Source: an uncultured Bacteriovoracaceae bacterium | GTDB lineage: Bacteria > Bdellovibrionota > UBA2394 | Length of the DNA stretch: 64,000 bases | Direction: 5' to 3' | Assembly (NCBI GenBank): GCA_964601045.1 | Contig: CAZRLF010000001.1 | Coordinates: 134,402-198,401 of the forward strand | Shown: positions 6,068 through 45,650 of the stretch, in pieces | How the letters are laid out: every line of letters begins with the position of its first letter | How positions within the stretch are numbered: the first letter of the stretch is position 1 | Made by a program: the position numbers and the translations under genes | Notes under the pieces: generated by a model | What the model saw: the letters and a program-made list of their open reading frames with translations, nothing else | Databases searched by the model: none | Told to the model about the DNA's origin: nothing

Positions 6068-6460
6068 ATGTTCGCAAAAGTTACAGAAGGAATTCGCATC
6101 GAAGTTCAGCCTCTTTATATTCCTGAAGAATCAAACCCGCGCGAACAGAGATTCTTTTTTGCCTATCGCGTAATGATTCAAAATATAGGTAGCGAAAGTG
6201 TGCAGCTTCTGAATCGTCATTGGATTATCCTCGATAATCTCGGCAATTCTGAAGAAGTCAAGGGACCTGGCGTGGTCGGCAAGCAGCCTACTTTGCCGCC
6301 AGGAACAGCATTCGAATATACAAGCTACTGCCCACTTAGAACACCAACAGGAAGCATGCGAGGCACCTACGAATTCATTCGCACAGACGGATCAAAATTC
6401 TTAGCTGAAATTCCTGAATTCGATTTAATCAAACCCGACGCTCGCCCCACTCTACATTAA
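6068..6460 (+). CDS. apaG: ApaG (DUF525) protein
   Basis: MFAKVTEGIRIEVQPLYIPEESNPREQRFFFAYRVMIQNIGSESVQLLNRHWIILDNLGNSEEVKGPGVVGKQPTLPPG matches ApaG across its full length. Confidence 0.85.
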   Translation: MFAKVTEGIRIEVQPLYIPEESNPREQRFFFAYRVMIQNIGSESVQLLNRHWIILDNLGNSEEVKGPGVVGKQPTLPPGTAFEYTSYCPLRTPTGSMRGTYEFIRTDGSKFLAEIPEFDLIKPDARPTLH

Positions 6461-9384: not shown

Positions 9385-10007
9385 TTTTTGTCCTTAGTAC
9401 ACACGCACTTGGCTAATAAAAGAGCAAGTTCTATGCCAGAAAATACCTAAGTATTTGTGGGGGCTTTTGGGTCGATATGCAATTAGTTCATAGAAATTTA
9501 AGTTATTTACTACTGAGACCGCCTCCCTAACTAGGGGGGCCCTAAATCGAACTTTCAAAGAAAGATCTCGCCTCCCTTTTAAACCTTCTACCTGAGACTT
9601 AAGCTGTCCACCCAATTCCACAGAAACTGAGACATCGTTATCCCAAGTGCCTTAATTAAAACTAGACATTTTAGAGGTAAAGACCTCAAAATATTTGATT
9701 TTTAGGTATGGCACGGTCTTTGCACTAACCACAGAATGTGAGAGCCGAATTATTTTAGTTGAAGAAAGGCTCTCTCTTGACAGGATAAGGACGAGGATGC
9801 TTTATTCGGTGCGTCATGCCTTAGTTGGTAGAGGTTGAAAGGCTTGAAGCGGAGATAATCGAGAGAAAAACAGGGGTTGAGATACACGGTGAGAAGGCAC
9901 TTGAGTTTTATAAACTCTTGAGTTAAAGGCCTACCACCTGGTAACGGTTTTTTTTAAAGATTTTGGGTACATGGATCTAGAACACAAAAAGGACAGGAGA
10001 ACAAAAT

Positions 10008-10829
10008 ATGAAATCAACTTTAATTAAATCAGTTCTAGTTGCAGTTGCTGCAATTGGATTGAATTCTACAACTTTCGCCGCAGGCGCAAGTGCAACACGA
10101 ACCGGTAACGTATCACCTACTGATGCTGCTACCATCCTCGTATTGCAAAAAATGGCCCCCGAAATGGTTAACACCTTTCGAGCCGAAAAAATGAATGCTG
10201 GTTTAACATTTTCTAGTTCAGCTCAAGCCGCTGCTTGGTTGAATCAAAAAAGCGGTGGAAAAATCACCAATATTCAAGATGCAATTCAAGCTCAACAAGA
10301 TATGGGAACTGCCTCAGCTGATGTGATCGAAAGCAGCCTAAAGGGTGATACTATGGCACTTTTAACAAGCGTCACCTCAACCTCAAACTGCAGCCTTCGC
10401 TCTCTTAAAGATTCAGCCGCAAGCCCTTCACAAGCTCAACGTCAAAAAGATGCTAAGCTTGAAAAAGATCTTGGAGCTTTCAATAACGTAGTAGCTTTCT
10501 ATACCGGTCAAGTTGGCTCAACCAATTCCATTAAAGAAATGGTTCAAGGCCAAAGCGAAACAGCAAATTCAGTGAAAGATGGATTACAAGTAATTGTTTC
10601 TCCAGAAGGTGCTAGAGCAGTTGCTGAGTTCTATGCCGCCAATGGAAGCACTCCTGAGAATGCTCACTGTGCCGTACCTGTTGCTCTTGCTTCAGCTCTC
10701 AGAGCTAAAGGAACCGCAGAATCAGAAGTACAATCAACAGTTGTAAGTCTTGCTGGAGCTTGTGGTTCTGAGCTCAATATTTCTCGAACCGATGCTGAAT
10801 CAGTTAGCAGCTGTTTAGTAGGTCATTAA
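10008..10829 (+). CDS. Secreted Ala/Ser/Thr-rich protein of unknown function (4 Cys)
   Basis: A strong SD (aggaga, 8 nt upstream of the ATG) precedes the gene. The signal peptide is MKSTLIKSVLVAVAAIGLNSTTFAAGASA. A strong terminator follows the gene. Confidence 0.65.
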   Translation: MKSTLIKSVLVAVAAIGLNSTTFAAGASATRTGNVSPTDAATILVLQKMAPEMVNTFRAEKMNAGLTFSSSAQAAAWLNQKSGGKITNIQDAIQAQQDMGTASADVIESSLKGDTMALLTSVTSTSNCSLRSLKDSAASPSQAQRQKDAKLEKDLGAFNNVVAFYTGQVGSTNSIKEMVQGQSETANSVKDGLQVIVSPEGARAVAEFYAANGSTPENAHCAVPVALASALRAKGTAESEVQSTVVSLAGACGSELNISRTDAESVSSCLVGH

Positions 10830-10855
10830 TACCTGTCGTTTTAGGTCCGTTTTTT

Positions 10856-10899
10856 AAGAAGCCTCTTTCTTGTAAGAAAGAGGCTTCTTGCTTTTTGGG
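10856..10899 (+). terminator. Intrinsic terminator
   Basis: AAGAAGCCTCTTTCTT-gta-AAGAAAGAGGCTTCTT forms a perfect 16-bp stem, followed by GCTTTTTGGG. Confidence 0.8.
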
Positions 10900-10994
10900 C
10901 TGGGACTCCCCCTCGAAATCCTTTCAGCCCAATAGCTCCCAAACTATGACCTTTTTTCATAGCTTTACCCTCACCCCCAATAAAAGTTGTCCCT

Positions 10995-11010
10995 AAGGCT
11001 TATAAGCCTT
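10995..11010. promoter_or_regulatory. Perfect 16-bp palindrome AAGGCTTATAAGCCTT, a candidate operator about 85 bp upstream of the giant gene
   Basis: The palindrome is exact (the reverse complement of AAGGCTTA is TAAGCCTT). It lies in the promoter region between the terminator at 10899 and the giant ORF start at 11095. Confidence 0.25.
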
Positions 11011-11094
11011 GATTACGCGAACACCCGTGGCATATTGTTTGCACATTCAAAATGCAGTGGTACGTATTGAGGTCTCAAAGAATGGAGGAGGACC

Positions 11095-14000
11095 TTGGTT
11101 AACTGGAGATTTAAATTCTTTCAGTTTTCGATGATTTTTACCCTTTTGGTAAAGGGTGAGTCCTTACGTGCGTCTAACGATGCCTGCGAGCCTAAAAGTG
11201 CCATTCAAGAGCTTCTGCAGTCAGCTCAGAATCCAGTTAATTCCAATCAAGACATCCCAACTGACCCATCGCCTTCAATTCGTTCTAATGGAAATGCGCC
11301 TCAGAATCCTCCCCCGGCGGTTGAATTGCCAGTTCCTGCAACCACCGACGGAAAAGTTGCAGCGTTTTTTCAAGCTTGGCGAGAGAAAGTGCAAACCAAA
11401 GTTGAAACTCCTGAAAGCAAAAAGCTAAAAGATAAAATTCTTTCTGAGTACGGAGTAAAACCGATCTCCGAATATTTGGTATCAAAGTCGGTCAGCGCTG
11501 CGCTTAAATTTTATTTAAGATGGGAAAATCCTACTTACCGTGATGCAAAATCTACTCCTGCACATTTTGCCGATATTCGAGTGGGAGACGATCTTAAATT
11601 AGCCCAGATTTTTGGCGTTTCTTCGGCTGAAAATCGCGGCATTCAAGATATGATTTTTAATGATCTGCTTAAAACCCCAGAAGGCAAAAAAAAGATTATC
11701 GCCGTTGGAGATATTTTAACTCTTTTCTTTGATACCCATTTAACGGACAACTTACAACTTAACCCCGAGCAGAGAGAGATCCTCTTGAGCTCGATGACCG
11801 AAATCAAATTAAATTCTAACGGAAATCTTGAAACCACCGCTGATTTTCCTCGTCTTGATCAGATTGAAAAATTTAATCAAGCTTACGTAGAATCATTTAA
11901 TAATCTTTCTGCAAATCTCGTGGATGAAAATGGAGATCGTCCTGATAACACAGTCGTACGAAATCTTCTAAAAGAAGCATTCTCTAAGCGCCTTAAAAAA
12001 ATTCAAAAAGATGCTAAGGGAGCTCTGACCTTTGATTTAGTTTTAAATGCCATTCAAATTACTCCGGCAGATCTAGAAGAATCAAAATCAACAGCCACGC
12101 AATCAAGTGAATTTGACAAAATGCTTCTCATGCACGCTCACCTTTCTCAAACTGAAAATTATAATAAATCTAGCGCGTATCGACTATTCTCAAGCGCAGC
12201 AGACCACAGCGCCGGAAAAATCCAAGCTTATAAAGATCTCTATAATCCGCCCGCAAGTGAACTTGCAAAAAAAACTGAAGATTCAGAAATTAAAAATCAA
12301 GAAAGTAAAATTCTTTCTGCAACTGTCGGCAATACAACCATGTTTGAAGGCACGCCCCTTATTAATTTTGGCGCTCTTCCCATCTCACAACGAGATCGAG
12401 AAATTCTGCAAAAACAAATTAAAAACGATATAAAGGGCTCATTCTCTCTAAGCTCAAACCAATCAGATCCTGGAGCAGACGCATTTAAAGACGCTCGCTA
12501 TGCCGACCCAAGACAATTTTTGCCGAAAGGTAAAAACAAAAAAGGCGAACTTGAAGCGCCTTATTACGAAAATCCTTACCGCATTCAACTGCAAGCTCAC
12601 GCCTCACCTGCTCCTCCAGCCTCTTATATTGCCGGCGGCTGGAGGATTCCACTTGAGTCAGGCGGAGTTCGCATATTTACCGATCAAGAGTTTGAAACAT
12701 ATAAAACGGCCGCCATGAATGCTGAAGTTGAAAAACGTATTGAGGCCATGCTGAAAAACGGAGTCGAAATTGATTTGCGGACTCTTCTTTCAAATGCCGA
12801 TCGTTACGACACTCAAGGTTTTTTTACCGGCGGTAAAATTGAACCCAAAACTGGCAAATGGAGAGATCCTTTTTTAAGACGTCATCGAGATAAATCGGGA
12901 GGAGAAATTGATTTTAAAGGTGAAATCAAAAATAGATACGATCTATCTCTTCAAATTTTAAGGTTCGCGCTTAATAAACCAGATTTAAAATCTATTCCTA
13001 TTACGTATTCAGACCTTCTTTTTTGGCCTGAAGAAGAGCTTACTGCATTACTCACAATTAAATCTCTCACTCGTGATACTTCTCTTTTAGAAGTCGATGC
13101 CTCTGGGCGGCTTAAAAGATTTGACAGCAAACAACTTGCCACTAAAGCATCTGATCTTTTGGGATGGAAACTAGATGTTGAGAAGAAACTAGGATTTTTT
13201 CCTGATATTCATTTTTCAAATGAAAAAGAGCTGCTCTCGGCCGTTGAGAAAATCAATGCCGCACTTAAAGATAAAGAATCATTAGCTCCCGGAATTCCTC
13301 TTGTTCATCTTGGATGCCTAGAAAAAGATGGCAAACTCGTTGGAGGTTTTCTCCCCGAAGGAGAAGTGAAACCCTTAAGCCTTACTGATTTCAGAAAGGC
13401 TTATAGAGAAAAAAAAGAAGAGGTTAAAGCTCCTTTATTTAAATCAGCCAATGAGTTGGTCGAAAAAATAGACTCTTGCATGGCTGAAGTTAAAAAAGAG
13501 AGGAATGACTTAATTAAGTCAACGACCTTAAGCCTTCAGACATTCGGTAAGAAGCTCTTTTCAAATCGGCTTAAAGCCTATATTCGATATCGATTTCAAA
13601 TTGAAGATTATCTCGATCAAAAAGCAGGCAAAGCAGTTAAAACGGGAGATAGACTTAAGGCATTTGAAGCAAAATTAAAAGCCAACGAGGCTCAAAATCT
13701 TTCTCAAGAACAAAACGAAACATTTCTTTTGAATGAATGGAACTCAATTACTGCAGAGAGGTTTAAAGAAATAGCTCTATTTAATCGCCAACTGATCGAT
13801 AGTCCCGATGCTGACCTTAAAGAGTCCGAACTTAAAGAACTCGCAAAAAGCGCTCAAAAAACTTTTGACTCGTCAGATATTCAATTTTTGCGACAAAATC
13901 GCCTAAGCATATTAGCCAATTACATTATTGAATCGCCCCAGCTCCCTACAGCTCAAAAAATTGAAAAACTCGAGGCCTATCTTAGATTAAGATACGCTGC

Positions 14001-17000
14001 TGAAGATTATCTCGACCAAAAAGAAGGTAAAAAAATATCTTTAGGAGCACGTGCTCGTGCTTTGGATGCTGCCCTTGCTCGAGATGATTTTAAATCAAAA
14101 TCCACATCTGAAACTATTTTGAAAGCATTGGAGTTTGAATGGAAGTCTTTCCAAGTAGAGCGAATGGCTGAAGTTTCAGATCTCATATCGCAAGTGGCGG
14201 TTAAGCCTCAAAACACAATCACAGACTCGGCAGAGCAAACTGTGGCTGTGACTCTATCAAAAGCCATGAATCAAGATGAACTGCTTGATTTAAATTCAGA
14301 TCATTTAAATCTTCTTCTCAATGATCAGTATAATTCTGCTGAAAAAATCAAACTCATTAATCTCTCTCATTTCTCTTTGAGTGAGCTAGATGCTCTTCAC
14401 TTTTTATCAACTCGATATGGTTGGAATGAGGTCATATTTGCCGCAGAATCAACAGATGGCATGGGACTTCGCCTGTTTGATTGGCTTAATAAAGCGGCAT
14501 CAAATAAAATTGATTCGGGAAAAGTTCAAACACTTTCTATTTTAGATTCTTATGTCCTTTTGAACGCTTCTCATGAACTTGCTGTTGCAAGTGGAATTAT
14601 TCCTACTCTTTGGGGAGATAACTGGAAAGCCACACTAGAAAATATAAACAAAGCTCCACTAACAGGTGTCAATTTAAGGCAGATTGGTAATTACAATTCA
14701 ATTCCGATCATTGAAACACTTAGACTTCATCAAGATGAAGCTTCTCGCTACTTTACATATGATAATATCATTAAATCATTTCGCCCTACTCGGGAGGTTA
14801 AGCCCGTATTTGATCTTGAGAAAGACTCTCTTGAGTCATTAGCGCGTTGGAACATTCCTACTGATCCCAAACATTTACAAAAATTAACTGAAATGGCTGC
14901 AGTTTTTAAATGGGACATGATCAAAGAAGCCTATCTTAAAAACATGAAGGACGAGAAGAAGTCTCAAAAGGAACAGGATGATAAGAGAAAAGAAATCGAA
15001 GAATATAAAAATGGAGTTCATCCAGACCTCGTTAAGTTCTATCGACAAAATCAAAATTTAAAAAATTATCATACTTTAGCGGAGAGAATGAAAATTACTC
15101 CTGAAAAGGATAACACCTTAGCTCGAAAATCATTTTCGGGTCGCTCTGTTTTTGAAACTAATTCTCAAGTAAGTCAGTCACTACAGGCCGGACTTGTTTC
15201 TTTAGACGTCTTTTTAGATGACTTTTTTGCTGACTCAAAAAATATTTTGACTAAAGAAATCAAAGAACGACTCGAGTCGAGCACTCCTGGATCAGCCGAT
15301 ATCACTGCCCTCAATATGATTGGGTTTGATACCAATACAAAAAGCTTTCAAAGTGCTATTGCTCAAATCAAAGCAGAGAACAAACCTCTCGCCGAAGAAC
15401 TTCTTCAACAAAGTCAGCTTTTCTTAAAAGCAGGTCGAGAGCTTCAAAGCAGTTTTGAACAAGGTGGCCTTTCTCGAGACGACTTTAAAAAGATTCTTTA
15501 TGCTGCCAATCAAAGAGAAGAAATCATGCTCGAAATTATCGGCAAAGAGAAAAATAATATTAAAGAAGGCAGCAGCGTGAGTAGCACAGCTTCAGAAAAG
15601 ATTCTCTCAGCGGCCAAAGTTCAACTCCCCTCATCAAAAGCGGGCCGTGCCAGAGCTGCTAAGCAGCTAGATAGTTTAAGAGCCTTGATGAGTTCATCTC
15701 AGGTTTTATTCGCTAACTTTCATGAGTCACTGAGTACAATGGTGGCCCGTTATTCGATTCCACTTCTTTTTGAAGAAATTAGATTAAACGCTGAAAAGAG
15801 CCCCCTCGGCGAAGAGATTCTCTCTCAACCTCAATTTCAGCAGAACTTAATCAGCTCAGGGCTGGAGAGGGCAAGCGAACTTTCTAATTTGGGTAGCCTT
15901 ATAGATTTAAATTCTGTCTCCGCTGCATTGGCAGATGCCACTCTCAATGAAGGCTTTAAGGTCGGTGAATTTGAATCTGAAGTTCGCAAGATGTTTTCTT
16001 ATCACTACGATCTGAACCGCCTCCTCTACGGAAAATCCTTTGATCCTGTGGGCTTTAATTTTTATAAGGGACTCGAAGGCAACGCACGAACTTCTGGCAG
16101 TGATACAGATCATATCGATAAAATTTTGATCGCAAAAATTAATGAGATTCGAAAGCGCCAGCACGACTCAGTTGATCGAATTTCTAACCTTTTGACGGCT
16201 AAACTTAAAACTCTTCCTGAAACTCATGCCTTAGGTAAGTTTTTGCAAGTTCTTGCCGAAGGAGTTGCAGTTAAAAAAGCAAAAAATGCTAAAGGTGAAC
16301 CCACATTCGAAATTTCATCGGCTCTTAAACTAAATACGGAGCGCAATGAAAAGGATCAAATAATCTATAAAGGAACACTCTCTGATCTCGTTTCTTTCGC
16401 AAAATTCACTGAAAGACCATTGAGCGCTGACCCAGATTTTTTACCGATTGGAGAACGAGATCAATCTTATGCTGTGAGATACGATAAATTCGAAGAACAA
16501 TATAAAAATATATTTAAGAACAATCCTAAATTTGCTGATTCTTACGAAACGCGTCGTAATCAAGGTAAGCTTCAAACCAGTCTTGATCGCCTTGGTCAGA
16601 AACGAAGCATTTCGATTCCACTTAAGAATAGACTTGAAGGGCTAAAAGACTTTCTCAGTGCCGCAAGAGCTCAACCCCAGTTTAATACCCAAGAAGTTCA
16701 AATGCTTTTTGAGAAAATGGAGTCTGAAAATAAAGTCAACCTCAACAATTTCTTTCTATCGATTTACTTTGCTCTTCAAACTCAATTGGGCAAGCAAATG
16801 CCTGATAGCATATGGGCTGATAAAGAAGCCGCTGCTCAAGAGGCCATTAATAAATTACTTCAAAAAAGTATTGAAACATTTCCAGCTGATATTCAGTCGA
16901 ATGCTCAGATTCAGGAAATCCTTAAGGCGATAAAAGAAGCCAAAGTTTCGTCATTTGTAAAATTAGATTCTAAAGCCACAGCGGAGCAGAAAGCCGCCGC

Positions 17001-21936: not shown

Positions 21937-21951
21937 AGAAAGGTCTTTCTT

Positions 21952-23847
21952 ATGCAATCTAGAATCCTCTGTTTATTGAGTGCCGCATTAGTCACGTCTC
22001 CTATCACTGCACAAGAGCGGCAGGATAAAGTTAGCTATTACGAATTTGGAGCTTTGAAAGTGAGGATTAAACCTGAGGATATGGGGACCTTAGGAATCGC
22101 CACGCCCCTTCGTTCAAATCCGAGCGATAGCAATTCAAAGTCTTTGATGATTATAAAAGTCGCTGATCAATATTTTCTGCTTAAAACATTGGATGAATTA
22201 GGTGATCGACAAGATCGCGGGCCTTTTAAGAATGATCAGCTCTATAAAATAGACGCCAAGAACCTCGATACCTCTTTGATCAAGATGGTCAATGATGAAT
22301 ACGTCGCGTACGGAAAAACAGTAGGGGAACTTCAAAGACAACTTCAAGATGCAGAAAATGAAATCCGAACCACTGTGTCTCAGGAAAAAATAACGCCCTT
22401 ACGAAAACGGCCTGGGGCTTCTGATACAATTCAAAGAACGCCCGCTCAAATCGAAGAAGAAGTAGGAAAACGTTTGGCTCCTATTGAGGCGGGCCTTGAA
22501 AAGCAATTTAAAGACGCTCAACAAAAAATTAGTTTTTATACAGTCAAAGATGGAAACTTAGTTTTAGGAGCTGAGAGTAAAGTCATTCTTAAAGACTATA
22601 TAGCCATGCTGAGTGATCCGGCCGCTAAAGGAAAACCTAATTTTAGCCCGATAAGCGAAACTCAAGTCGCTAAATCTGCACAAAAACTTGATGAAGACGA
22701 TGAGCTTTCACTCATTCATCATTTTAAATTTGGATCTACTGAAGTGAATGTGGATACTGAGAAGCTTAATGAGAAAGGTCACATTTTTCCTTTAAGTTTT
22801 GCGTCTGATAAAGAAATGGAGCCCTCAATAGATTTACTCCTCCTTGAAATTGATGGAAAAAACTATCTCCTCAAACCCAAAATGGATCTGAACAAGCGAT
22901 TGGACTTCGTTGTGTCTCAAGGATCTTCGTTTTCTTTGCGTGAGGGAGATGAACTTTACGCTCTAGAGTCAAAGAATTTGAATTTGGCAAATATCAAGAA
23001 AGTAAAAGATGAACTTACTTCTCTTATAAAAGAAGCCGAAAATGCGGAAAGAACATTTGAACAGATAACTAATAAAATCAAAGCTGAGATTGAAGCAGAT
23101 AAGAGTATTCCTCAGAATAAGCGCGATGAAGAATTTGAAAAGCGGAGCACGGCGGCATTAATCGAATATCAAAATTCAATTTCTGCTAAAACTGCAACCG
23201 TAAATAATTTTGCGTCGGTAAAAGATGGAAATCTTTTTTTTAGATCCACTGGCGCTCCAATTCTTCAAGGATATGAAGAGCTGCTAAAAAATCCATCTGC
23301 TCGAGGCGAACCTCAATACTATACTGAAGAAATGATTGAGAATGAAGCGGCTGAACAAATTAAGAGAATGGAACAAGCGCAAAAGTTTGCGCCGGCGAAA
23401 TATCAGATAGGTCATCAATTTTCTAAAAAATTTGCAGAAGATTTTGATATGACCAAAAGTATTTCTCTTATTAGTTCAAATAAAACCTCTGGAATTCTAC
23501 AAACAAACACTTATGATCTCGCTCAAAATCAGATTAAACGCCCCGATGGTAAAATTGAAAAGCTGATTCAACTTCAGCTTGCTAAAGATCAAAAACTCTC
23601 TGACATTCCAGCAGCCGATCGTCTTAAGTATTTTCCGACACAGAGACAGATGACACAAATAATGAGCCGAGAGATTAACGATGCTTTCGATTTACTGCAC
23701 TCAATTGAAGTTAACTCGACTAACCGAACAACTAAGCTTTTGGGATCTACGAAGTTCAACTTTCACAACAATCAAATAGTAGATCCTTCAGGAAGTACTC
23801 AAACGATCAAACAGGAAGAGCCTCCTGCCGCAGACTTAACGAAGTAG
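21952..23847 (+). CDS. Secreted K/E-rich protein with two about 215-aa internal repeats, unknown function; co-transcribed with the giant gene (15-bp gap)
   Basis: The signal peptide is MQSRILCLLSAALVTSPITAQE. Repeats pair as ...LMIIKVADQYFLLKTLDEL...LYKIDAKNLDTSLIKMVNDE with ...LLLLEIDGKNYLLKPKMDL...LYALESKNLNLANIKKVKDE, and as FYTVKDGNLVLGAESKVILKDYIAMLSDPAAKGKPNF with FASVKDGNLFFRSTGAPILQGYEELLKNPSARGEPQY. Confidence 0.7.
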   Translation: MQSRILCLLSAALVTSPITAQERQDKVSYYEFGALKVRIKPEDMGTLGIATPLRSNPSDSNSKSLMIIKVADQYFLLKTLDELGDRQDRGPFKNDQLYKIDAKNLDTSLIKMVNDEYVAYGKTVGELQRQLQDAENEIRTTVSQEKITPLRKRPGASDTIQRTPAQIEEEVGKRLAPIEAGLEKQFKDAQQKISFYTVKDGNLVLGAESKVILKDYIAMLSDPAAKGKPNFSPISETQVAKSAQKLDEDDELSLIHHFKFGSTEVNVDTEKLNEKGHIFPLSFASDKEMEPSIDLLLLEIDGKNYLLKPKMDLNKRLDFVVSQGSSFSLREGDELYALESKNLNLANIKKVKDELTSLIKEAENAERTFEQITNKIKAEIEADKSIPQNKRDEEFEKRSTAALIEYQNSISAKTATVNNFASVKDGNLFFRSTGAPILQGYEELLKNPSARGEPQYYTEEMIENEAAEQIKRMEQAQKFAPAKYQIGHQFSKKFAEDFDMTKSISLISSNKTSGILQTNTYDLAQNQIKRPDGKIEKLIQLQLAKDQKLSDIPAADRLKYFPTQRQMTQIMSREINDAFDLLHSIEVNSTNRTTKLLGSTKFNFHNNQIVDPSGSTQTIKQEEPPAADLTK

Positions 23848-23865
23848 AATATTCAAGCAAAAAGA

Positions 23866-23893
23866 AAGAGCGCCACCGATACGGGGCGCTCTT
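23866..23893 (-). terminator. Terminator hairpin between the two convergent operons (U-tract on the minus strand)
   Basis: AAGAGCGCC-accgatacgg-GGCGCTCTT forms a 9-bp GC-rich stem. The minus-strand reading is followed by TCTTTTTGC. The hairpin sits 19 bp after the plus-strand gene and 30 bp after the minus-strand gene. Confidence 0.65.
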
Positions 23894-23923
23894 AAACAGC
23901 GATCGAAACTAAATAAGAACTAA

Positions 23924-24580
23924 TTAAACTCGGCAAGAATTCTCAAATTTGCCGCCCATACCCAATTGCAAACTGTCAAGCCAGTTTCTTACCTTAGCTG
24001 ATACGAAATCTGTATGAGCTTTGATTCCTGCATTAAAACTGCCAAATTTGATGCGGGCGGCCTGCATGGCATCTGAGGTAACTTTCATGATGGCGTTGTA
24101 GGCTCTCTTGATAAAGATATCTTGACTTCGAGCATTTTGAGCGAAATGAGGAAACATCAACGCAGCTATGCCTTCAACTTCCGGCGAAAAACTTTCAGCA
24201 ACTAGAGGTTCAGATATTGAATCAGTAGCCGTACCTTCAGCAAATTTCATCTCTAAAATGGAATGAATATCTCCTGATATATTATGCTTTGCACCTATGA
24301 CACAAAACGGCTTCTCGTTTCTATGCTCTATCTTCATCATATTATCGTCAGCAGCTTTAGGAGCGAGAATACCTTGCTGAGTGGCTCTGACCGCTTTCGA
24401 GGAGTCAAGCATTCGGCCTGACTCGCCAGTCGCTCGGTCATTTATTTCGACATTTTGCTTTTTAATATCGGCAATACTGATCCCATTGTGCTCACCCGCA
24501 AAGGTTGAAGCACTTAGAATCATCAATAGCGCTAGTCCGATCGTTGTTTTACTTTTCATATTTTGTTCCTTTCTTTTCAT
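23924..24580 (-). CDS. Secreted protein (218 aa), unknown function; last gene of the minus-strand secreted-protein operon
   Basis: The signal peptide is MKSKTTIGLALLMILSASTFAGE. The ATGA start overlaps the stop of the upstream 1367-aa gene. Confidence 0.6.
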   Translation of the reverse strand: MKRKEQNMKSKTTIGLALLMILSASTFAGEHNGISIADIKKQNVEINDRATGESGRMLDSSKAVRATQQGILAPKAADDNMMKIEHRNEKPFCVIGAKHNISGDIHSILEMKFAEGTATDSISEPLVAESFSPEVEGIAALMFPHFAQNARSQDIFIKRAYNAIMKVTSDAMQAARIKFGSFNAGIKAHTDFVSAKVRNWLDSLQLGMGGKFENSCRV

Positions 24581-27500
24581 TCCAATGCAAATTCTTCTGC
24601 TAAGGATTGTTCGTGGCTGTCGACTGTTTGGGCATGAGCTCGATACCAGTCTCGGGGTTGGTCATATGTCACCCGCTTAACAGCACGTGCTGTATCTAAT
24701 GCAAAATTTTTGGCTTTTACGATATTGCTCAGACTCATATCAAAGGTGTCGACCATATTGGAGCCCAACATCAAACCCACTCCTGCGTTTTTAAGGGAGA
24801 ATATTTCTTTCCAAAATTCGATTCCATCACTCATTTTCTTATTTTTAAGATCGAATTGCTCAATCGTGTCAGGAAAATCCGAGAGACCTTCGGTCATATC
24901 TATAAATCCTCGGCTCCATTCACCAAAACCTTTTCCTACTTGAGCGTGATAGTTTGATGCGGCAGAAAAACGTGTAGGTTCTAAACCATTAAGTCTTTGA
25001 ACAATTTTTAAATCTCGCAATACTTTAATTTCACGAGCGGCTAGGCCAGACTGCTGAGCAATTTTCGCTAAATTCATTTTGGCAGCTGTATTAAGTCGAC
25101 TACCGAGCTCTCCCACTCTCTCAGCAACTTGTCCTATTTTATGGACGCCCGTGACAAAGAACATACTTCCGGCAACTCCATCGTAAGTATTATTGGCCAT
25201 TTGAGAGATCGAATCAAAGGCCCCTAATTCATCGGTAAAGTTTTCTGGAACTTTAGTTGTTCCATTTCTTTCAAGATCCATTAGACCCTTATCAAGCGCT
25301 TCATTAACAGCTTGAATTCTTAAAATTTCTCCTCCTGCTGCTCCAGCAAAACTCATTCCTCCGATAACTCGCATCGAACGTGAAGCAGCAATCTGAGCAG
25401 CCGTTCGGCCCGTAAGCGTAGTGAGTAGAAGCGCCTGTTGACCGAGACTTAAACCCTCAAGAGAGATACTTGTCGCTCCAGCGGCTCCCAGGCCTCCCGT
25501 CGCGACTGTCCCTAAAATAATAAATCCGCCATTTCCTATCCAGCGCCCACCTTTTGAAAGTCGTGAGATTACAGCATCGGCTGAATTCTCAAGATCAGAA
25601 AGTTCTTGAGAAGTTGTCGTCGCGGTTCCAAAAAGCGATAACTCAACAATATCTGCCGCAGCGACTTTTGCAGGCTCCCAAGCCAATTGCTGAATACCCT
25701 TGCCCAGCCAAACGACGGGATTATTCTGCATATATTCGACTGCCGGACTATTCACACTAAATCCATCCAGCACGGCACCATCAGGCAGACCATAGTGTGC
25801 ATTAATCCACTCCGTTAAACTTTCGCGCTGTCTTAAATATCGATCAAAGGCCTTATCTTCACCCTGAAATAACCAAACCACGTCACTTTCAAGAATAAAA
25901 GCGGTATCTCCAATGGAATGAACTAAGCCATGAGCAATTTTTCGTCCTTTTAATGCCCATGATTGTTCCTCTGAAACTTTGTTCTGAGTCTTCCACGATT
26001 CAATTTCAGCTCGGGCAGAGGATCTGGCATTAAATCGCTCGATCGCTAAGTCCTTTCGGTTGATAAAGCTTCCGGTCGCTTTTGAAATTTCATTAATTGA
26101 ACGACTCATAAGATTTTCTTCGTCTATCAATCGATTAAGCGTATCAGTGTTCTTAAAGCTAAATCTATCATCCGACGACATCTTGAGTTGCTCTGACTTA
26201 AAGTTTCGATCTCCGCTTAAGATTTCTGCCTTAAGATAGGCAATCATCTCATCGCCCGCTTGCTCCTGAGAAAGGCCAATTTTCTTAAGCTCTTGAAGAA
26301 TTTGGGGCCATTTAAATTCAGTTTGAGTCTTTAAATATTCTAACCAATATTTAATTCTCCCTTTTTGATACATTCGATCTGAAATTTCGTCGGCTGACGC
26401 ATATGAAGAAATTCCGGGCTGAGCGGCAAGAGTCTCTGCGACAGCATTTTTTTCTGATCGAATCCAAGATTCAAGATCAAATTTAAGCTCGGCCTCATCT
26501 TTTGATTGCATAAGATAAAGCGGCATTGCGTCTTTATTTAATGGGTCTGGAGTTCGCATCCACTCTTCAGTGGGCGAAAATTTTTGATCTTCTCGCAGCT
26601 TTCGAGAACTTTCAATGCGTGACCAGAATTCTCCAGCCTGCTGAGTCTTAGCGCTTAACGCATTTATTTGCTTTTGAAATCGTATCAAATAAAAATACGT
26701 ACGAATATCTTCTGCACTCCATCCCTTTGCTTTAGCCCAAGCATTCTCAGTGGCGATTTTTTCAATGTCTTTCCAAGACTTATTCTGAGCTTCAAGCAAT
26801 TCAATTTGAACTTTTGCAAACGATCTGTTTTTAAAGGCTTCAAATGAAGAATAAACAAGCTCTTTATATTTTTCAGCAGAAAGTAAAAAGCCAGGGTATT
26901 CATCTGATATCTCTTTTAAACTCTGCTGAATCTTTTTAAATGACAAATCAATATGAGAATGAAGAGCATTACTTTCGTTTTCAAAAGTAGTCGCATCAAA
27001 AACACCTTTCTTATTTGATTTAAGTTCGATTTGAGCAAACCGATTTCGAACGTCTTCCGAATGCTTGTCAAAAATTGATTCTATCTTTTCGTTCACTATT
27101 TTGAGTCGAACGCTATCAGCAGAAAAATAATTAAGAATTCCTGATTTTTGAATACTGGCCCAAGATTTACCGGCCAAGCCATGAGGTCCGGCCTTCTGCA
27201 AAGAATTGGCATAAAAAACTTCTTTTTGAACACGCTTAATCTTATCTTCAAGCTCCCTTAAGGGAAATCCGGTCTTATATCTTGCTTCAAGAGCTCTCAA
27301 CTCCGCCCATATTTTTTCGATTTCATCACGAGCAGACTTTGCTTCGTTGGTAAACTGAGCCTGTCCTAAAATATACCCCTTCTCTTTTGAAATCCTATAA
27401 AGCCGAGAGATCGGATCAATAAAACTTTCATAAACCAGCCACTGATTAAATCGATCTTCATCAATTTTTTTCTTCACTGTAAATTCGAGCGCAAGTGGTG

Positions 27501-28680
27501 ATTTCAGAATATCACTGCGTGAAGCTGTTGGATTTTCTTTAAGCCATTCAGCAGCATGCAGACGAAACTGCTCCAATCTCTGCAATTCAGCGATATCAAC
27601 TAACCGCTCTAAATACTGCTCAGAGAAATGAAGTGCTCGCTTAGCATTAATAAATTCTGATAGCTTCTTGGCGAGATTAGCTTTACCAGCATCAGTGTAT
27701 TGTGCCCAAAAACTTTGTTCTTTAATCGAATCATTAATTAGATTCTGAGCTTCTTGTGCAGCTATTTCACGAGCATGATTTTGAATTTGAAAATAATTGT
27801 TAATTTCATCAGCTGATTTATCTGAGAAAATCATGAGACGAGCTTGTTCTTTGAGATCATCGAACTCAGAAGGCAGTTTTTCAATCATTGGCCACTTTAT
27901 CTTGAGATATAAATCCCATAGATCAGCATTTGAAGTGCCGATAAGATTACTTTTCCTCTGAACATCGTTTGCAGCTAAGAGAAATTCGCTCCATCTTGCC
28001 TGAGGATGAGACGAAAGCCATTCAGATGAAAATCGCAAAAGTTCTTTTTGAGAATTATTTGTAATAATTCTTTTTATTAAATCATCGATTAAAGCTGTGC
28101 TTTCGCCTTGAGAGCCTTTAATTTTAATAAATTCCAGAATTCTGTCTTTGGCTTTGGCTTTCTGAATCGAATCTTTGGCATGAATCCACGGAGTAACAAG
28201 GTTTTGTAATTCAACTCCAAGCTCATAGATTTTTCTATTGTGCTTAGCGACCTCAGACTGAATCTCTTGAACATTCGATCCCTTCGTAATGGCATTTACT
28301 GCTATCTCTTTAGACCCCCTATCGAGTAGCGAAAGATACGACTCCATTTTTTTTACTTTTTGATCAGCCGAGTCTGAAGGACGAATTTTTCTGAAAGATT
28401 GCTCAAGAATTGAGTTAAAATTCTGGGCTTCTGATTGAAAGGGATTAATTTTTGAAGAAACCTGAGTTTGAATGGGTGAAGTAGAAGAGACCCCTGCTTT
28501 TTGTTCTGCCTGATTAAAAATAGACTCCCAAGATGGTGTTGTTTGGGGAGCACAGATACGAGGATCAACAGATTCTGCAGCGAGTGCAAAACTTGCTAAA
28601 AAGATCATAATTTGCAGCATTTTAAGCTGGGTCCCCATATCACCCTTAAGATTGCAAAGATTAGGCCAGTGTAAGTTCAT
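24577..28680 (-). CDS. Large (about 1350 aa) secreted K/E-rich alpha-helical protein with a C-terminal Gly/Ala-rich hydrophobic domain resembling that of the giant protein; putative toxin or effector paralog
   Basis: A signal peptide MLQIMIFLASFALAAES is present if translation starts at ATG 28620; the ORF track's start at 28680 and ATG 28638 are alternatives. The C-terminal region ...LSLFGTATTTSQELSDLENSADA...IGNGGFIILGTVATGGLGAAGATSISLEGLSLGQQALLLTTLTGRTAAQIAASRSMRVIGGMSFAGAAGGEILRIQ spans about plus 25.3-25.6 kb. Confidence 0.8.
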   Translation of the reverse strand: MNLHWPNLCNLKGDMGTQLKMLQIMIFLASFALAAESVDPRICAPQTTPSWESIFNQAEQKAGVSSTSPIQTQVSSKINPFQSEAQNFNSILEQSFRKIRPSDSADQKVKKMESYLSLLDRGSKEIAVNAITKGSNVQEIQSEVAKHNRKIYELGVELQNLVTPWIHAKDSIQKAKAKDRILEFIKIKGSQGESTALIDDLIKRIITNNSQKELLRFSSEWLSSHPQARWSEFLLAANDVQRKSNLIGTSNADLWDLYLKIKWPMIEKLPSEFDDLKEQARLMIFSDKSADEINNYFQIQNHAREIAAQEAQNLINDSIKEQSFWAQYTDAGKANLAKKLSEFINAKRALHFSEQYLERLVDIAELQRLEQFRLHAAEWLKENPTASRSDILKSPLALEFTVKKKIDEDRFNQWLVYESFIDPISRLYRISKEKGYILGQAQFTNEAKSARDEIEKIWAELRALEARYKTGFPLRELEDKIKRVQKEVFYANSLQKAGPHGLAGKSWASIQKSGILNYFSADSVRLKIVNEKIESIFDKHSEDVRNRFAQIELKSNKKGVFDATTFENESNALHSHIDLSFKKIQQSLKEISDEYPGFLLSAEKYKELVYSSFEAFKNRSFAKVQIELLEAQNKSWKDIEKIATENAWAKAKGWSAEDIRTYFYLIRFQKQINALSAKTQQAGEFWSRIESSRKLREDQKFSPTEEWMRTPDPLNKDAMPLYLMQSKDEAELKFDLESWIRSEKNAVAETLAAQPGISSYASADEISDRMYQKGRIKYWLEYLKTQTEFKWPQILQELKKIGLSQEQAGDEMIAYLKAEILSGDRNFKSEQLKMSSDDRFSFKNTDTLNRLIDEENLMSRSINEISKATGSFINRKDLAIERFNARSSARAEIESWKTQNKVSEEQSWALKGRKIAHGLVHSIGDTAFILESDVVWLFQGEDKAFDRYLRQRESLTEWINAHYGLPDGAVLDGFSVNSPAVEYMQNNPVVWLGKGIQQLAWEPAKVAAADIVELSLFGTATTTSQELSDLENSADAVISRLSKGGRWIGNGGFIILGTVATGGLGAAGATSISLEGLSLGQQALLLTTLTGRTAAQIAASRSMRVIGGMSFAGAAGGEILRIQAVNEALDKGLMDLERNGTTKVPENFTDELGAFDSISQMANNTYDGVAGSMFFVTGVHKIGQVAERVGELGSRLNTAAKMNLAKIAQQSGLAAREIKVLRDLKIVQRLNGLEPTRFSAASNYHAQVGKGFGEWSRGFIDMTEGLSDFPDTIEQFDLKNKKMSDGIEFWKEIFSLKNAGVGLMLGSNMVDTFDMSLSNIVKAKNFALDTARAVKRVTYDQPRDWYRAHAQTVDSHEQSLAEEFALE

Positions 28681-28782
28681 TTAAGTCCATGAAAAGACTG
28701 ACTTTTTTAGACTCTAACGCGCAGCCCTGCAATTATTGCAGAGTTTTAGACTTTTGCTTTCAGCGTCAAAAAATATTGAATT

Positions 28783-30144
28783 TTAGTTGGTGGTTCTAAA
28801 TCGGACTCGCCAATTTTTGGGTCGAAACGCTCTCTTGGGTGTGGCAAATAAAATTGCGGCTTCACCACTAAAATCGTATGGCCCTTTACGTTTTTGAGAA
28901 GCCTTCCGCGGCTGAGGCTTTGGTCTTGAACCAACTTTAATAGGCTTGGATTTTAATCTGAGACGCTCAGTTGAAAAATCTTCTAAATCGGAACCTAGCG
29001 CTAAAGCAGTCTGAGAAATCTCTTTTGCAAGATCGCCTCTCTCATTAAGAGGAGTTGAAAGCACAGTCTGCTCAGCTCGTTCTCGAATAAGACGTTCAAG
29101 TCTTTTAAATTCGTCATCTCGCAGTATCGACTCAAATAAGGTTTTTGCTTTATCAAGGATAATCTGAGGTATTAAGGATTTCAAATGCTGCAAAAGATTG
29201 GATTGCTTGAAATCTCTTTCACTCCCCTCTCTTCGATCATTGCCTGCACCTCTCGAACCTCGAGCTTCTCCAAATTGAATTTGACCGTAACTTCCAGAGG
29301 TTTGCATCGAAGAAGAAGCCTGGTCTGAAAACTGAGATTGAGAATCAAAACCTGCAGCAGAATAGCCGTACTCAGGAAACATTGATCGCGAAGCCGCCCG
29401 AGAGAGGCCAGAGAAAAATCCGCTGACAAAATCAGGGATAAGAATTGAAGCTGCGTTCTTTATTCCCCTTTCGACTGTTCTTAAACCAGCACCAATTGCT
29501 GATCTGCCAGATTTAATGCAAGGAATTCCAGCTTTAGCTCGATCTTCAATTTGCTCCTGAGAAAGACCGTCGCAATATATCTGAGCAACCGATGGATCAA
29601 TCCCTGATCTAAAATCGTTGTTCGGCAAAAAGTTTGAAAAATCAATATGAGGCACAATTGATTCTGAACTATTTAAAAGTCTTTCTCGATTGGCAAAGGA
29701 ATTCGCAGACGATTCTAAATTCGGCGAAGGATCTAAAACAAATGAATCTGATTGCTCCGATTGAGGTATATTTGAAATTTGTTGAAGACTTGGAGGAGGA
29801 GTCGAATCATTTTTTTGATCAATTGGTGCAGGAGCATTCTTAATAAAATCTTCAACACCCTTGATAGGATTAAAAGATTCTTTATCGCCAATCTTTGTCT
29901 GATGAAAGTCTTCGCCTCCTATTGCAGAGGACGCACCTAAAGCACTCGGCATTCTATTTGGAGCAAAAGTCGAATCTGCCGTCGATTGATCGGGATTCAT
30001 TAATTTAAGTTCAATCAATTTATCGATACAGGTCGTCTCTGGAAGAATTTTTTTATCGGCTGCGTTTACGGCAGACATTGATTGCGCTAGCACAAGAAAT
30101 GAAAGTGCTAGCTGAGATCTAAGATGTATCTTCTTATAGACCAT
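28783..30144 (-). CDS. Secreted Ser/Gln/Gly-rich low-complexity protein with a basic C-terminus, unknown function
   Basis: The signal peptide is MVYKKIHLRSQLALSFLVLAQSMSAVNAA. A long disordered S/Q-rich middle region is followed by a basic tail KPIKVGSRPKPQPRKASQKRKGPYDF...FRPKNWRVRFRTTN. Confidence 0.6.
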   Translation of the reverse strand: MVYKKIHLRSQLALSFLVLAQSMSAVNAADKKILPETTCIDKLIELKLMNPDQSTADSTFAPNRMPSALGASSAIGGEDFHQTKIGDKESFNPIKGVEDFIKNAPAPIDQKNDSTPPPSLQQISNIPQSEQSDSFVLDPSPNLESSANSFANRERLLNSSESIVPHIDFSNFLPNNDFRSGIDPSVAQIYCDGLSQEQIEDRAKAGIPCIKSGRSAIGAGLRTVERGIKNAASILIPDFVSGFFSGLSRAASRSMFPEYGYSAAGFDSQSQFSDQASSSMQTSGSYGQIQFGEARGSRGAGNDRREGSERDFKQSNLLQHLKSLIPQIILDKAKTLFESILRDDEFKRLERLIRERAEQTVLSTPLNERGDLAKEISQTALALGSDLEDFSTERLRLKSKPIKVGSRPKPQPRKASQKRKGPYDFSGEAAILFATPKRAFRPKNWRVRFRTTN

Positions 30145-32959: not shown

Positions 32960-33278
32960 TCCTAATAACTTCTTTCTTATCCAATCATGGGGCCTATAAC
33001 TTTTGGCCAGCCAATCTCAATTCACTCCTAATATATAGGTAGTGTTTATGAAAAACCTTCTAATTACAAGCAAGTGGCCTAGGCACACTGCATTAAATCC
33101 CTAAGAATCCTGTTTCTCTGTCTTGATATGACAAAGTCAAGCCAGCCCATCATAAAAATAATGATTGCTTTTTATCCATGATAAACATCAAAGTTTTGGG
33201 TCTTTGTCTTATCGGCGGCGTGGCATTCGAGAACACCTAACGCAAGTTATCAAACCTTTTAATTCAATCAAAAGTAAA

Positions 33279-45641: not shown

Positions 45642-45650
45642 TTTAAACTT

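Follow-up and report, generated by a model that had tools for sequence, protein, structure and literature searches.

The block of giant and secreted proteins between apaG and topA in this uncultured Bacteriovoracaceae genome appears to comprise two unrelated things: a conserved envelope module, built around a giant protein that would be anchored in the producer's inner membrane, and three lineage-specific orphan genes on the minus strand. We put the probability of this reading, including the placement of the three orphans outside the module, at a break in synteny between it and topA, at roughly 0.45. For the module, sequence analysis shows linkage in six distant genomes, predicted export signals, apparently intact ATPase and CxxC motifs, and a giant in which no toxin or enzyme domain is recognizable. 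Three of its four components (the giant, a four-cysteine protein and a 631-aa partner) fall into no family described so far. That the genes have stayed linked through rearrangements, in six genomes with housekeeping proteins only 50-80% identical, speaks for a working machine.

Gene content of the block

Within the window, i.e. the whole 64,000-nucleotide stretch analyzed, ORF calls place three plus-strand genes encoding proteins of 273 aa (10008-10829), 3613 aa (the giant; 11095-21936, TTG start) and 631 aa (21952-23847, starting 15 nt past the giant's stop). These converge on three minus-strand genes encoding proteins of 218 aa (23924-24580), 1367 aa (24577-28680) and 453 aa (28783-30144, beginning 124 nt downstream of topA). 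ApaG (6068-6460) and TopA (30269-32959, minus strand) lie on the flanks. An earlier sequence-only reading had counted seven consecutive genes; there are six, and a seventh was rejected after the intergenic regions upstream of the giant were found to hold only ORFs of at most 75 aa. The non-coding region of some 620 bp that it described upstream of the plus-strand genes is present (9385-10007, 623 bp) and contains no plausible ORF.

That reading was also right that the proteins lack recognizable enzymatic motifs and are undescribed: none of the six has a significant domain match, and searches of Pfam, NCBIfam, PADLOC, PHROGs and PDB sequences returned nothing significant. Piecewise BLASTP found no cross-similarity among them, and scans of the window for Rfam RNAs and tRNAs were empty. 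Signal peptides and topology were judged by home-made heuristics. The description of the proteins as exported-looking holds for five of the six, which pass a simple N-terminal signal-peptide heuristic that the cytoplasmic housekeeping proteins of the window fail; the giant itself is borderline, and its five orthologues all pass. Lysine- and glutamate-rich composition is a property of the 3613-, 631- and 1367-aa proteins (26-29% charged residues) but not of the 273-aa protein, which is Ala/Ser-rich with 16% charged residues, or of the Ser-rich 453-aa protein.

The proposal that two convergent operons form a single module is not supported by comparison with related genomes, where conservation is confined to the plus-strand genes. 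The partner conserved with them is the AAA+/thioredoxin gene previously taken as a flank, so the module reaches beyond the block as first delimited. Half of the flagged block falls outside the conserved feature, and the supposed flank gene belongs to it.

A family of giant proteins

A GGAGGAGG ribosome-binding site serves the giant's TTG start. The N-terminus (residues 1-26) looks like a signal peptide and leads into a Cys-Glu-Pro motif (C31), and the protein is predicted to be mostly alpha-helical. An exhaustive HMMER search of 1.84 billion (1.84e9) representative proteins recovered nine relatives, five of them full-length (3,227-3,457 aa; E 2e-126 to 8e-34) and 22-30% identical to the giant along its whole length (alignment A1). 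Homology over the full 3,200-3,600 aa unites the window giant with P0007-P0010 and P0012 in one very rare family, with 295 columns of A1 conserved in at least five of the six sequences and with the motifs WxDPILERxR, PTLWGxNWK, GDGVGLF, AYGSRPDR and LRDRFGxExEIxF. A word-indexed homologue search with the C-terminal 1,413 aa or with a 271-column sub-alignment gave no match, and the family is thus invisible to that index. Scans of metagenome_contigs with the giant, and with an alignment of the window and P0007 proteins, found no relative. Pfam and NCBIfam hold no match for any of the six orthologues, a PDB profile search with the family was empty, and Foldseek of the giant's model against the PDB returned nothing significant.

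Internally, the giant carries a tandem duplication (13567-14352, plus strand) of residues 825-957 and 958-1086, 31% identical (piecewise BLASTP E 3e-9), in a region mostly missing from the orthologues (A1 gap fraction 0.3-0.6 over residues 801-1100). Further along lies a putative membrane-embedded region (18232-19140, plus strand) of three weakly hydrophobic, Gly-rich segments at residues 2380-2400, 2532-2553 and 2660-2682, whose positions are conserved across the family. The loop between the first two (2401-2531) is strongly basic, D2380 and D2536 are invariant, and the charges flanking the three segments alternate in a positive-inside pattern in all six orthologues. This conserved pattern points to anchoring in the producer's own membrane. 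Judged by such predicted features, a membrane-anchored protein fits better than a soluble toxin, and the giant probably spans the cell membrane. The segments are weak, with crude Hessa sums of 2.6-6.7, where genuine transmembrane helices of the window score -2.4 to 5.0, and none of the three passes a stricter hydrophobicity threshold; they may instead serve a fully secreted protein as latent insertion helices. The C-terminal part holds two beta-rich domains (19933-20745, plus strand; approximately residues 2947-3051 and 3092-3217) that include the conserved LRDRFGxExEIxF motif and were modeled by AF2 from a nine-sequence alignment with a block pLDDT of 65-82.

The AAA+/thioredoxin partner

The conserved partner of the giant is a 975-aa AAA+ ATPase with a C-terminal thioredoxin domain (6457-9384, minus strand; Pfam AAA, AAA_lid_3 and Thioredoxin). 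A signal-like segment and an invariant Cys66 are followed by a degenerate first P-loop domain, a coiled coil, the D2 domain and the thioredoxin domain. The protein is a classical AAA+ member (PF00004, Pfam E 1e-31), and its D2 (residues 505-762) is of Cdc48/p97 type, with Cdc48 D2 as the best PDB match (E 8e-73). In a six-sequence alignment C66, Walker A K562, Walker B E627, sensor-1 N671 and the arginine finger R682 are invariant, and the aromatic pore-loop residue is kept in all six homologues; by its sequence the ATPase is apparently a functional unfoldase. The thioredoxin domain (PF00085, Pfam E 2e-14) is of TrxA/PDI type, with CGPC at residue 881 and TrxA/PDI matches at E 1e-15; the AAA+-fused thioredoxin of one related locus, L082, has CAHC at this site.

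Characterized bacterial members of the classical AAA+ group work in the ATP-containing cytoplasm. The N-terminus of the window protein is signal-peptide-like (AFA/ED around residue 33), and by the same heuristic all six homologues combine a positive n-region, a hydrophobic core and AxA-like sites. Such an export signal is hard to reconcile with ATPase function because ATP is absent from the periplasm, and a full-text literature search for AAA proteins described as exported, secreted, periplasmic or extracytoplasmic returned no bacterial precedent.

Secreted proteins adjoining the giant

The 273-aa protein is predicted to be secreted (signal peptide TFA/AG), and a gene of its type lies immediately upstream of the giant in six of six loci. 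Alignment A5 of the six syntenic proteins shows four invariant cysteines (C128, C221, C252 and C269); the match to the L083 protein has a tblastn E of 2e-4. A weak MerB C-terminal similarity of this protein (23.9 bits against a cut-off of 200) was taken as chance. A promoter-like element (9777-9814, plus strand) about 195 nt upstream of the gene comprises, on inspection, TTGACA (9777-9782), TG (9798-9799) and TTTATT (9801-9806), and its 18-nt block ATGCTTTATTCGGTGCGT is identical in L082, with an equally spaced CTTGAC, in a blastn-short comparison of intergenic regions. The 16-bp palindrome said to precede the plus-strand genes actually begins 27 nt past the 273-aa stop codon and lies 205 nt before the giant's start, and is a terminator-like hairpin separating the two genes (10856-10889, plus strand). 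Its perfect 16-bp stem (arms 10856-10871 and 10874-10889, with a 2-nt gap) folds with a 4-nt loop and is followed by CTTTTT; the predicted energy is -34.2 kcal/mol in an 81-nt context (z = -5.2). An equivalent hairpin with a T-run after it is found at this position in each of the five related loci (-13 to -27 kcal/mol in 46-nt windows).

Downstream of the giant, the 631-aa protein is likewise predicted to be secreted and contains internal tandem duplications (residues 27-225/255-450, E 1e-11; 478-540/559-621, E 2e-5). Its one relative is weak, a 582-aa ORF in the same position in L082 (31% identity over 96 aa, E 9e-6). In the other loci this position is taken by a DsbA-like lipoprotein or another uncharacterized gene. 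The CxxC of the DsbA-like lipoproteins in L084-L086 is degenerate (CPYS, DPFS and DPFT).

Synteny and inheritance of the module

A synteny comparison of related genomes, as the sequence-only reading had proposed, shows the plus-strand genes and the AAA+ gene to be syntenic in five related loci (L082-L086). In all five the giant adjoins a small protein lacking any Pfam match and an AAA+ ATPase. Giants of the family share one neighborhood: upstream lie the gene for a small secreted protein with four cysteines and a terminator hairpin, and a signal-bearing AAA+ protein is encoded next to the giant. Rearrangement has not broken the linkage: L086 has its AAA gene downstream, and in the window the segment is turned around with respect to topA. 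L082 has the same gene order on the left flank as the window. Five of the six loci also include a thioredoxin-fold element, which the window and L082 have as a fusion to the AAA+ protein and L084-L086 as a separate DsbA-like lipoprotein.

Between genomes, neighboring housekeeping genes are 50-80% identical versus 17-30% for the module proteins (giant 22-28%, AAA 23-27%, small protein about 26%), and we therefore regard the module as vertically inherited and fast-evolving, not as a mobile island. Every module-bearing genome has the same neighborhood of topA, dprA, a glycosyltransferase and an LPG-synthase-like gene, which again argues against an accessory island. The plus-strand module has ordinary GC content (0.39-0.43 versus 0.42 in the flanks), holds no tRNAs and keeps its housekeeping synteny, and a search with the module against plasmids and phage genomes gave no match. 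A Xer-type recombinase gene (33165-34127) is itself syntenic in L084 and L085. Among the 600 genome_contigs stretches listed, the closest TopA proteins are only 55-58% identical and belong to a mixture of Bdellovibrionota and cyanobacterial MAGs; none of 80 loci among these matches contains a relative of any block gene.

The minus-strand genes

No relative of the minus-strand trio was found in any related locus (L082-L086), and its proposed membership in the module is not supported. The 218-aa gene, which overlaps the stop of the 1367-aa gene by 4 nt, likely starts at codon 8 (24559), giving MKSKTTIGLALLMILSASTFA/GEH, and its product is predicted to be secreted. The likely start of the 1367-aa gene is codon 15 (28638); the protein, predicted to be helical, bears Cys-Ala-Pro (residues 43-45) after its signal peptide and, in a hydrophobicity scan, one Gly/Ala-rich weakly hydrophobic segment near residue 1054. 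Its AF2 single-sequence model is helical and unusable (pLDDT 39.8). A word-indexed homologue search with this protein found only itself, and searches of plasmids and phages gave no match. It had been called a large paralog of the giant, but BLASTP between the two yields no significant match, and paralogy was also rejected by hhalign of the six-member giant profile against it (probability 0.3%). The 453-aa protein is predicted to be secreted, has a strongly basic C-terminal tail and forms a singleton cluster. The trio is missing from relatives, yet its composition is ordinary; its orphan status is based on searches weaker than the exhaustive HMMER search applied to the giant.

The hairpin shared by the two converging gene sets (23866-23893) proved to be as described. 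Situated between the convergent stop codons, it is plausibly a bidirectional terminator (-20.3 kcal/mol on the plus and -22.8 on the minus strand, better than 200 of 200 shuffles), with a good T-run on the minus strand and a weak one on the plus strand.

Models for the module

In our preferred reading, the module would consist of the AAA+-thioredoxin protein (6457-9384), the four-cysteine protein with its own promoter and terminator (10008-10829), the giant and a variable secreted partner (21952-23847). The giant would be anchored in the producer's inner membrane and would not act as a soluble toxin: some 2,350 mostly helical residues would be periplasmic, followed by three weakly hydrophobic Gly-rich transmembrane helices, the second bearing an invariant Asp, and then by about 930 C-terminal residues, including the two beta domains, on the cytoplasmic side. 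It may thus form an envelope-spanning scaffold or conduit, with the thioredoxin-fold component maturing its exported parts and the four-cysteine partner, and the AAA+ unfoldase assembling or remodeling it. An exported ATPase would have no ATP supply in a normal periplasm, so this envelope-module model does not explain the role it proposes for the AAA+ protein.

The ATP problem would be solved if the N-terminal segment of the AAA+ protein were an uncleaved membrane anchor, so that ATPase and thioredoxin face the cytoplasm in the manner of Cdc48 or FtsH and act on the giant's C-terminal ~930 residues or membrane helices in insertion, extraction or turnover. CGPC is classically a motif of cytoplasmic thioredoxins, TrxA is the domain's best match, the hydrophobic core of the window protein is long (~17-20 residues), and the three-helix model provides a large cytoplasmic domain on which to act. 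We nevertheless consider this arrangement unlikely: five of the six homologues are clearly positive before the core and neutral or negative after it, which predicts N-in, C-out topology, several have 11-13-residue cores and AxA-like sites typical of cleaved signal peptides, and L084-L086 have lipoproteins as thioredoxin-fold partners, which places these outside the cytoplasm. The alternative that all components are secreted and act on another cell as an extracytoplasmic unfoldase-translocon resembling Plasmodium PTEX is also unlikely. Here the giant's Gly-rich amphipathic helices would enter a prey or host membrane, and the AAA+ protein, drawing on ATP present in or leaking from the target compartment, would with thioredoxin reduce, unfold and thread proteins across, the minus-strand orphans possibly serving as cargo. 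Such a role would be consistent with the export-type N-termini, intact D2 catalytic residues and pore-loop aromatic of all six AAA homologues, with a thioredoxin-fold partner fused or adjacent in five of six loci, with hydrophobic segments below the threshold for stop-transfer, and with divergence much faster than that of neighboring genes, as is often the case for interaction proteins. The same component types are paired in PTEX, which combines a signal-peptide-bearing ClpB-type AAA+ protein, a thioredoxin, a pore-former and a large scaffold protein (PMC7355975). However, we detect no sequence or fold similarity to EXP2 or PTEX150, the conserved positive-inside pattern argues for the producer's own membrane, no outer-membrane-crossing secretion system is encoded nearby, the DsbA-like partners of L084-L086 have lost CxxC, and a predatory or parasitic lifestyle is not established for the organism.

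The original proposal, that all six genes belong to a single island of secreted toxins or effectors for prey attack, draws on the export signals of the block proteins (borderline in the giant), on their lack of housekeeping homology and on the lineage-specific trio at a rearrangement junction. It is very unlikely as stated, since the plus-strand genes are core syntenic genes of the lineage set among housekeeping genes, no library searched reveals a toxin domain, the two large proteins are not paralogous, and mobile-element hallmarks are missing (flank-like GC, no plasmid or phage match). An effector-like role for the module is conceivable all the same, particularly because the partner ATPase carries an export signal. 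The site at which this ATPase works would reveal either a new envelope-spanning apparatus around one 3,400-residue membrane protein or an energy-dependent machine outside the bacterial cytoplasm.

Comparison with known systems

The block proteins do not qualify as known large bacterial exotoxins (RTX/MARTX, large clostridial toxins, Tc/Rhs, CDI), which are diagnosed by RTX nonapeptides, by catalytic domains of the glucosyltransferase or cysteine-protease kind, by Rhs/YD repeats or by a haemagglutinin-like TPS domain: neither the six block proteins nor the giant's orthologues match Pfam or NCBIfam. Type III translocators lack a Sec signal and come with a dedicated chaperone and a secretion-system locus; such a translocator or similar pore-former was rejected given the Sec-type signals present and no secretion-system genes in the window or the five loci. 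We also rejected a phage tape-measure or other phage protein (PHROGs matches of E at least 0.003, no qualifying stretch, no phage-genome match) and an anti-phage defence system (no PADLOC model match). Members of the RND superfamily have twelve transmembrane helices in two repeats and family Pfam signatures. The giant has three weak hydrophobic segments and neither sequence similarity nor a Pfam match to them, and was not assigned there; its resemblance to RND proteins (MmpL3, SecDF, Patched, NPC1, AcrB) may reflect only the generic packing of long helices.

The giants of predatory Omnitrophota resemble ours in being very large, poorly annotated proteins with membrane segments, from little-known bacteria and with a proposed role at the cell surface. 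Those proteins are longer than 30,000 aa and have numerous transmembrane regions; they contain divergent SecA DEAD domains as well as domains for adhesion and carbohydrate degradation, and their genes neighbor those for type II secretion (West-Roberts et al. 2023, bioRxiv 10.1101/2023.11.21.568195). None of these traits is seen in the window giant. With Cdc48, p97 and VAT the window ATPase shares a D2 that aligns to Cdc48 D2, with Walker A and B, sensor-1, arginine finger and aromatic pore loop intact. It differs in its N-terminal signal-like segment followed by an invariant Cys, in a degenerate first P-loop domain with a long coiled coil after it, in a C-terminal thioredoxin domain, and in having no Cdc48 N-domain.

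PTEX shares no homology with the module beyond generic AAA+ and thioredoxin folds, and the analogy is one of function. The D2 of the module ATPase is Cdc48-type in four loci and ClpB-type in two, its membrane element lies within a 3,400-aa positive-inside protein whereas PTEX has a 287-aa pore-former, and its carrier is a bacterium of no established lifestyle. Both systems nonetheless have a signal-bearing two-domain AAA+ unfoldase and a thioredoxin, together with large, poorly conserved, helical or disordered partners that include a membrane-inserting element, outside the producer's cytoplasm. That the module is a bacterial functional counterpart of the PTEX of malaria parasites, in which a secreted Cdc48/ClpB-like AAA+ unfoldase, a thioredoxin and a membrane-inserting giant of 3,400 residues would move or remodel proteins at the membrane of another cell or of a specialized compartment, is distinctly improbable; if the PTEX-like reading were true, the module would be the first bacterial AAA+ machine operating beyond the cytoplasmic membrane.

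A conserved module around the giant protein

The 3613-aa giant protein (window 11095-21936, plus strand) belongs to a very rare family. Word-indexed homologue searches detected no relatives of it. When residues 2250-3449 were searched exhaustively with HMMER against 1.84 billion representative proteins, nine hits emerged, of which one is the giant, five are full-length relatives (3,227-3,457 aa, E 2e-126 to 8e-34) and three are fragments. JGI metagenome contigs, scanned twice, yielded no relative. All five full-length relatives were placed on their contigs (loci L082-L086). In each of these loci a 264-309-aa protein lacking a Pfam match precedes the giant on the same strand, and a 788-940-aa AAA+ ATPase adjoins the giant; it lies upstream and divergent in four loci, and L086 has it on the downstream side. 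The small proteins can be aligned to the 273-aa protein of the window (10008-10829, plus strand), with which they have a signal peptide and four invariant cysteines in common. Alignment further identifies the AAA+/thioredoxin gene of the window (6457-9384, minus strand) as orthologous to the ATPases beside the giants in the related loci.

Five of the six loci pair the module with a thioredoxin fold. The window (CGPC) and L082 (CAHC) have it as a fused domain of the ATPase that keeps the CxxC motif, whereas L084 (20252-20995), L085 (19701-20441) and L086 (20232-21029) encode it separately, as a DsbA-like lipoprotein directly after the giant. There the motif has been lost, becoming CPYS, DPFS and DPFT, and a binding role without redox activity is probable for these lipoproteins. 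What follows the giant differs between loci: a protein like the 631-aa one in the window and L082, the DsbA-like protein in three loci, and another uncharacterized protein in one fragmentary locus. There is good support for a conserved module that consists of ATPase-thioredoxin, four-cysteine protein, giant and variable partner, and this undescribed, rare, conserved module is the real finding in the region.

The small gene carries conserved signals of its own. A strong terminator-like hairpin lies 3' of it in all six loci, 27-90 nt past the stop codon, with 130-200 nt remaining to the giant. Intergenic DNA around the gene has diverged between L082 and the window, except for two identical blocks. 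The first, of 18 nt, covers a promoter-like element with an extended -10 (TTGACA / TG-n-TTTATT) some 195 nt 5' of the small gene (window 9777-9814, L082 8644-8701). The second is the 17-mer CCTGTCGTTTTAGGTCC, which follows the stop codon directly and comes shortly before the terminator (window 10832-10848, L082 9778-9794). A regulatory role is possible for the long 5' leader and for the post-stop block.

Gene content and transcription signals of the block

The open reading frames of the sequence-only reading are present where it had placed them: the plus-strand frames encode 273, 3613 and 631 aa, those of the minus strand 218, 1367 and 453 aa. The seven genes it counted are six, and no ORF longer than 75 aa lies in the intergenic spaces upstream of the giant. 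ApaG, the AAA+/thioredoxin protein and TopA flank the block. As had been proposed, the six proteins carry no recognizable enzymatic domain, with no meaningful match in Pfam, NCBIfam, PADLOC, PHROGs or PDB sequences. By a simple heuristic, five of the six have signal-peptide features at the N-terminus, while TopA, the recombinase, the aminotransferase, the kinases and other cytoplasmic proteins of the window all fail; the giant's own signal is borderline in the window and a clear pass in all five orthologues.

Several start codons can be refined. Better ribosome-binding sites make codon 8 of the 218-aa gene and codon 15 of the 1367-aa gene the likely true starts. In the database the giant is entered as P0006, a 3601-aa protein beginning at the ATG of codon 13 (start region: window 11095-11133). 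This annotation is probably 12 codons too short, because a GGAGGAGG ribosome-binding site precedes the TTG at 11095, and starting there gives the protein the charged n-region that a signal peptide requires. The hairpin on which the two operons were said to converge (23866-23893) folds at -20 and -23 kcal/mol on its two strands, and no shuffle folds equally well; the non-coding spacer reported upstream measures 623 bp. The perfect 16-bp palindrome also exists (10856-10889) but had been misplaced: it lies 3' of the 273-aa gene, is followed by a T-run, and parts that gene from the giant.

Conservation and predicted topology of the giant

Over their entire length the six full-length giants are 22-30% identical, and at least five of the six sequences agree in 295 alignment columns, the conserved residues being chiefly W, G, P, F and L. 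Neither a conserved histidine nor a catalytic-looking constellation was found in this alignment, no Pfam family recurs among members, and the family profile had no match in the PDB. Three Gly-rich, weakly hydrophobic segments lie near window residues 2382, 2533 and 2660, at positions conserved in the family. Their crude Hessa sums are 2.6-6.7, compared with -2.4 to 5.0 for real transmembrane helices of two membrane proteins of the window and with soluble controls that seldom reach 4.0-4.4. In all six giants the flanking net charge alternates, from 0 to -5 before segment 1, to +5 to +17 between segments 1 and 2, -1 to -10 between segments 2 and 3, and +1 to +5 after segment 3. The proteins are overall neutral to acidic. 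The alternation reads as a positive-inside signature, predicting a membrane protein of three helices whose N-terminus lies outside and whose C-terminus lies inside. Two aspartates are invariant: D2380, where segment 1 begins, and D2536, within segment 2.

The AAA+ ATPase partner

The N-terminus of the ATPase is signal-peptide-like in all six homologues, with a positive n-region, an 11-19-residue core and AxA-like sites. After it come an invariant cysteine and then a first P-loop domain, degenerate in several members; a long coiled coil separates this from a second AAA domain. The second domain matches Cdc48/p97 D2 (E 8e-73) in the window and is of ClpB type in L083 and L084; Walker A, Walker B, sensor-1 and the Arg finger are invariant in the family, and the aromatic pore-loop residue is retained. 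The window thioredoxin domain is of TrxA/PDI type. An ATPase that appears catalytically intact yet is predicted to be exported is the truly puzzling feature of the module.

Paralogy, internal repeats and the minus-strand genes

The 1367-aa protein had been taken for a paralogue of the giant, a relationship that does not hold: BLASTP between the two was empty, and hhalign of the six-orthologue giant profile against it gave a probability of 0.3%. Piecewise all-against-all BLASTP uncovered no cross-similarity among the block proteins, only internal repeats, in the 631-aa protein (residues 27-225 with 255-450, and 478-540 with 559-621) and in the giant (825-957 with 958-1086).

All three minus-strand proteins have signal peptides. 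The 453-aa protein is rich in Ser and has a basic tail, and the 1367-aa protein is helical with one Gly/Ala-rich segment. No relatives of the three were detected, in searches less sensitive than that used for the giant, and they may be lineage-specific secreted proteins. Their sole link to the module is a Cys-Ala-Pro in the 1367-aa protein (residues 43-45, window 28552-28560), with a Cys-Glu-Pro counterpart in the giant (residues 31-33, window 11185-11193). This Cys-[Ala/Glu]-Pro occurs a few residues past the predicted signal cleavage in four of six giants as well as in the unrelated 1367-aa orphan, and could be a shared tethering or processing site. The AAA homologues have their invariant cysteine at a matching relative place, and the 453-aa protein has Cys39.

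Inheritance and neighborhood

Surrounding genes are 50-80% identical at the protein level between the window and the related loci, and the shared neighbors include topA, a Xer-type recombinase, a class-III aminotransferase, dprA, a glycosyltransferase, an LPG-synthase-like membrane protein and a polysaccharide deacetylase. The giant, ATPase and small protein are just 17-30% identical. L083-L085 have topA, AAA, small gene and giant in this order; in the window the AAA-small gene-giant segment is inverted relative to topA, the three minus-strand genes occupy the junction beside topA, and the left-flank order is common to the window and L082. A genomic island was considered for the module and rejected, given the shared housekeeping synteny, the ordinary GC content of the block, and the lack of tRNAs and of plasmid or phage matches. 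The module is core and lineage-specific, vertically inherited and fast-evolving. It belongs to an obscure lineage: among the 600 matches listed from 185,579 species genomes, the best for TopA are 55-58% identical and come from mixed Bdellovibrionota and cyanobacterial MAGs.

Run SRR15237806 is the source of both L081, a locus 100% identical to the window, and L083; since L083 has a different giant (23% identical) and its own topA, two distinct module-bearing organisms co-occur there. Elsewhere in the window, a 460-aa protein (227-1609, plus strand) with a signal-like N-terminus and no Pfam match, 37-51% identical in L082-L085, is another lineage-specific conserved unknown of the same neighborhood. 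Further putative exported, uncharacterized proteins are one of 872 aa (60845-63463, minus strand), with a signal-like N-terminus and no Pfam match, and the adjoining one of 689 aa (58295-60364, minus strand), whose sole match is DUF4900. A 1771-aa hybrid (40326-46097, plus strand) with Ser/Thr kinase, AAA_16, TPR, GAF, PAS, HisKA and HATPase domains, behind which a stand-alone receiver domain and an Hsp70-like protein are encoded, is predicted to be a signaling protein of unusual elaborateness.

Proposed mechanism and alternatives

That most module parts are destined outside the cytoplasm is well supported, as is the absence of toxin domains. The sequence-only reading of the six genes as a single toxin island is the least supported explanation. 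Overall, what that reading observed holds in part, and its interpretation has partial support. It recognized a real feature, which is narrower on the right, the minus-strand genes being separate, and wider on the left, where the AAA+/thioredoxin gene treated as flank is included. In the mechanism that we prefer, the giant would be anchored in the producer's inner membrane, with about 2,350 residues in the periplasm and about 930 in the cytoplasm, and would serve as a scaffold or conduit across the envelope. Disulfide-dependent assembly is suggested by the thioredoxin-fold component together with the many conserved cysteines, namely four in the small protein, three in the giant (C31, C741 and C795) and C66 in the ATPase.

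For the ATPase, intact yet predicted to be exported, two rival explanations are proposed. The ATPase may actually be an N-terminally anchored unfoldase that faces the cytoplasm and acts on the giant. Alternatively, the whole set could act outside the cell at another membrane, by analogy with PTEX of Plasmodium, which comprises the signal-peptide-bearing HSP101, TRX2, EXP2 and PTEX150 (PMC7355975).
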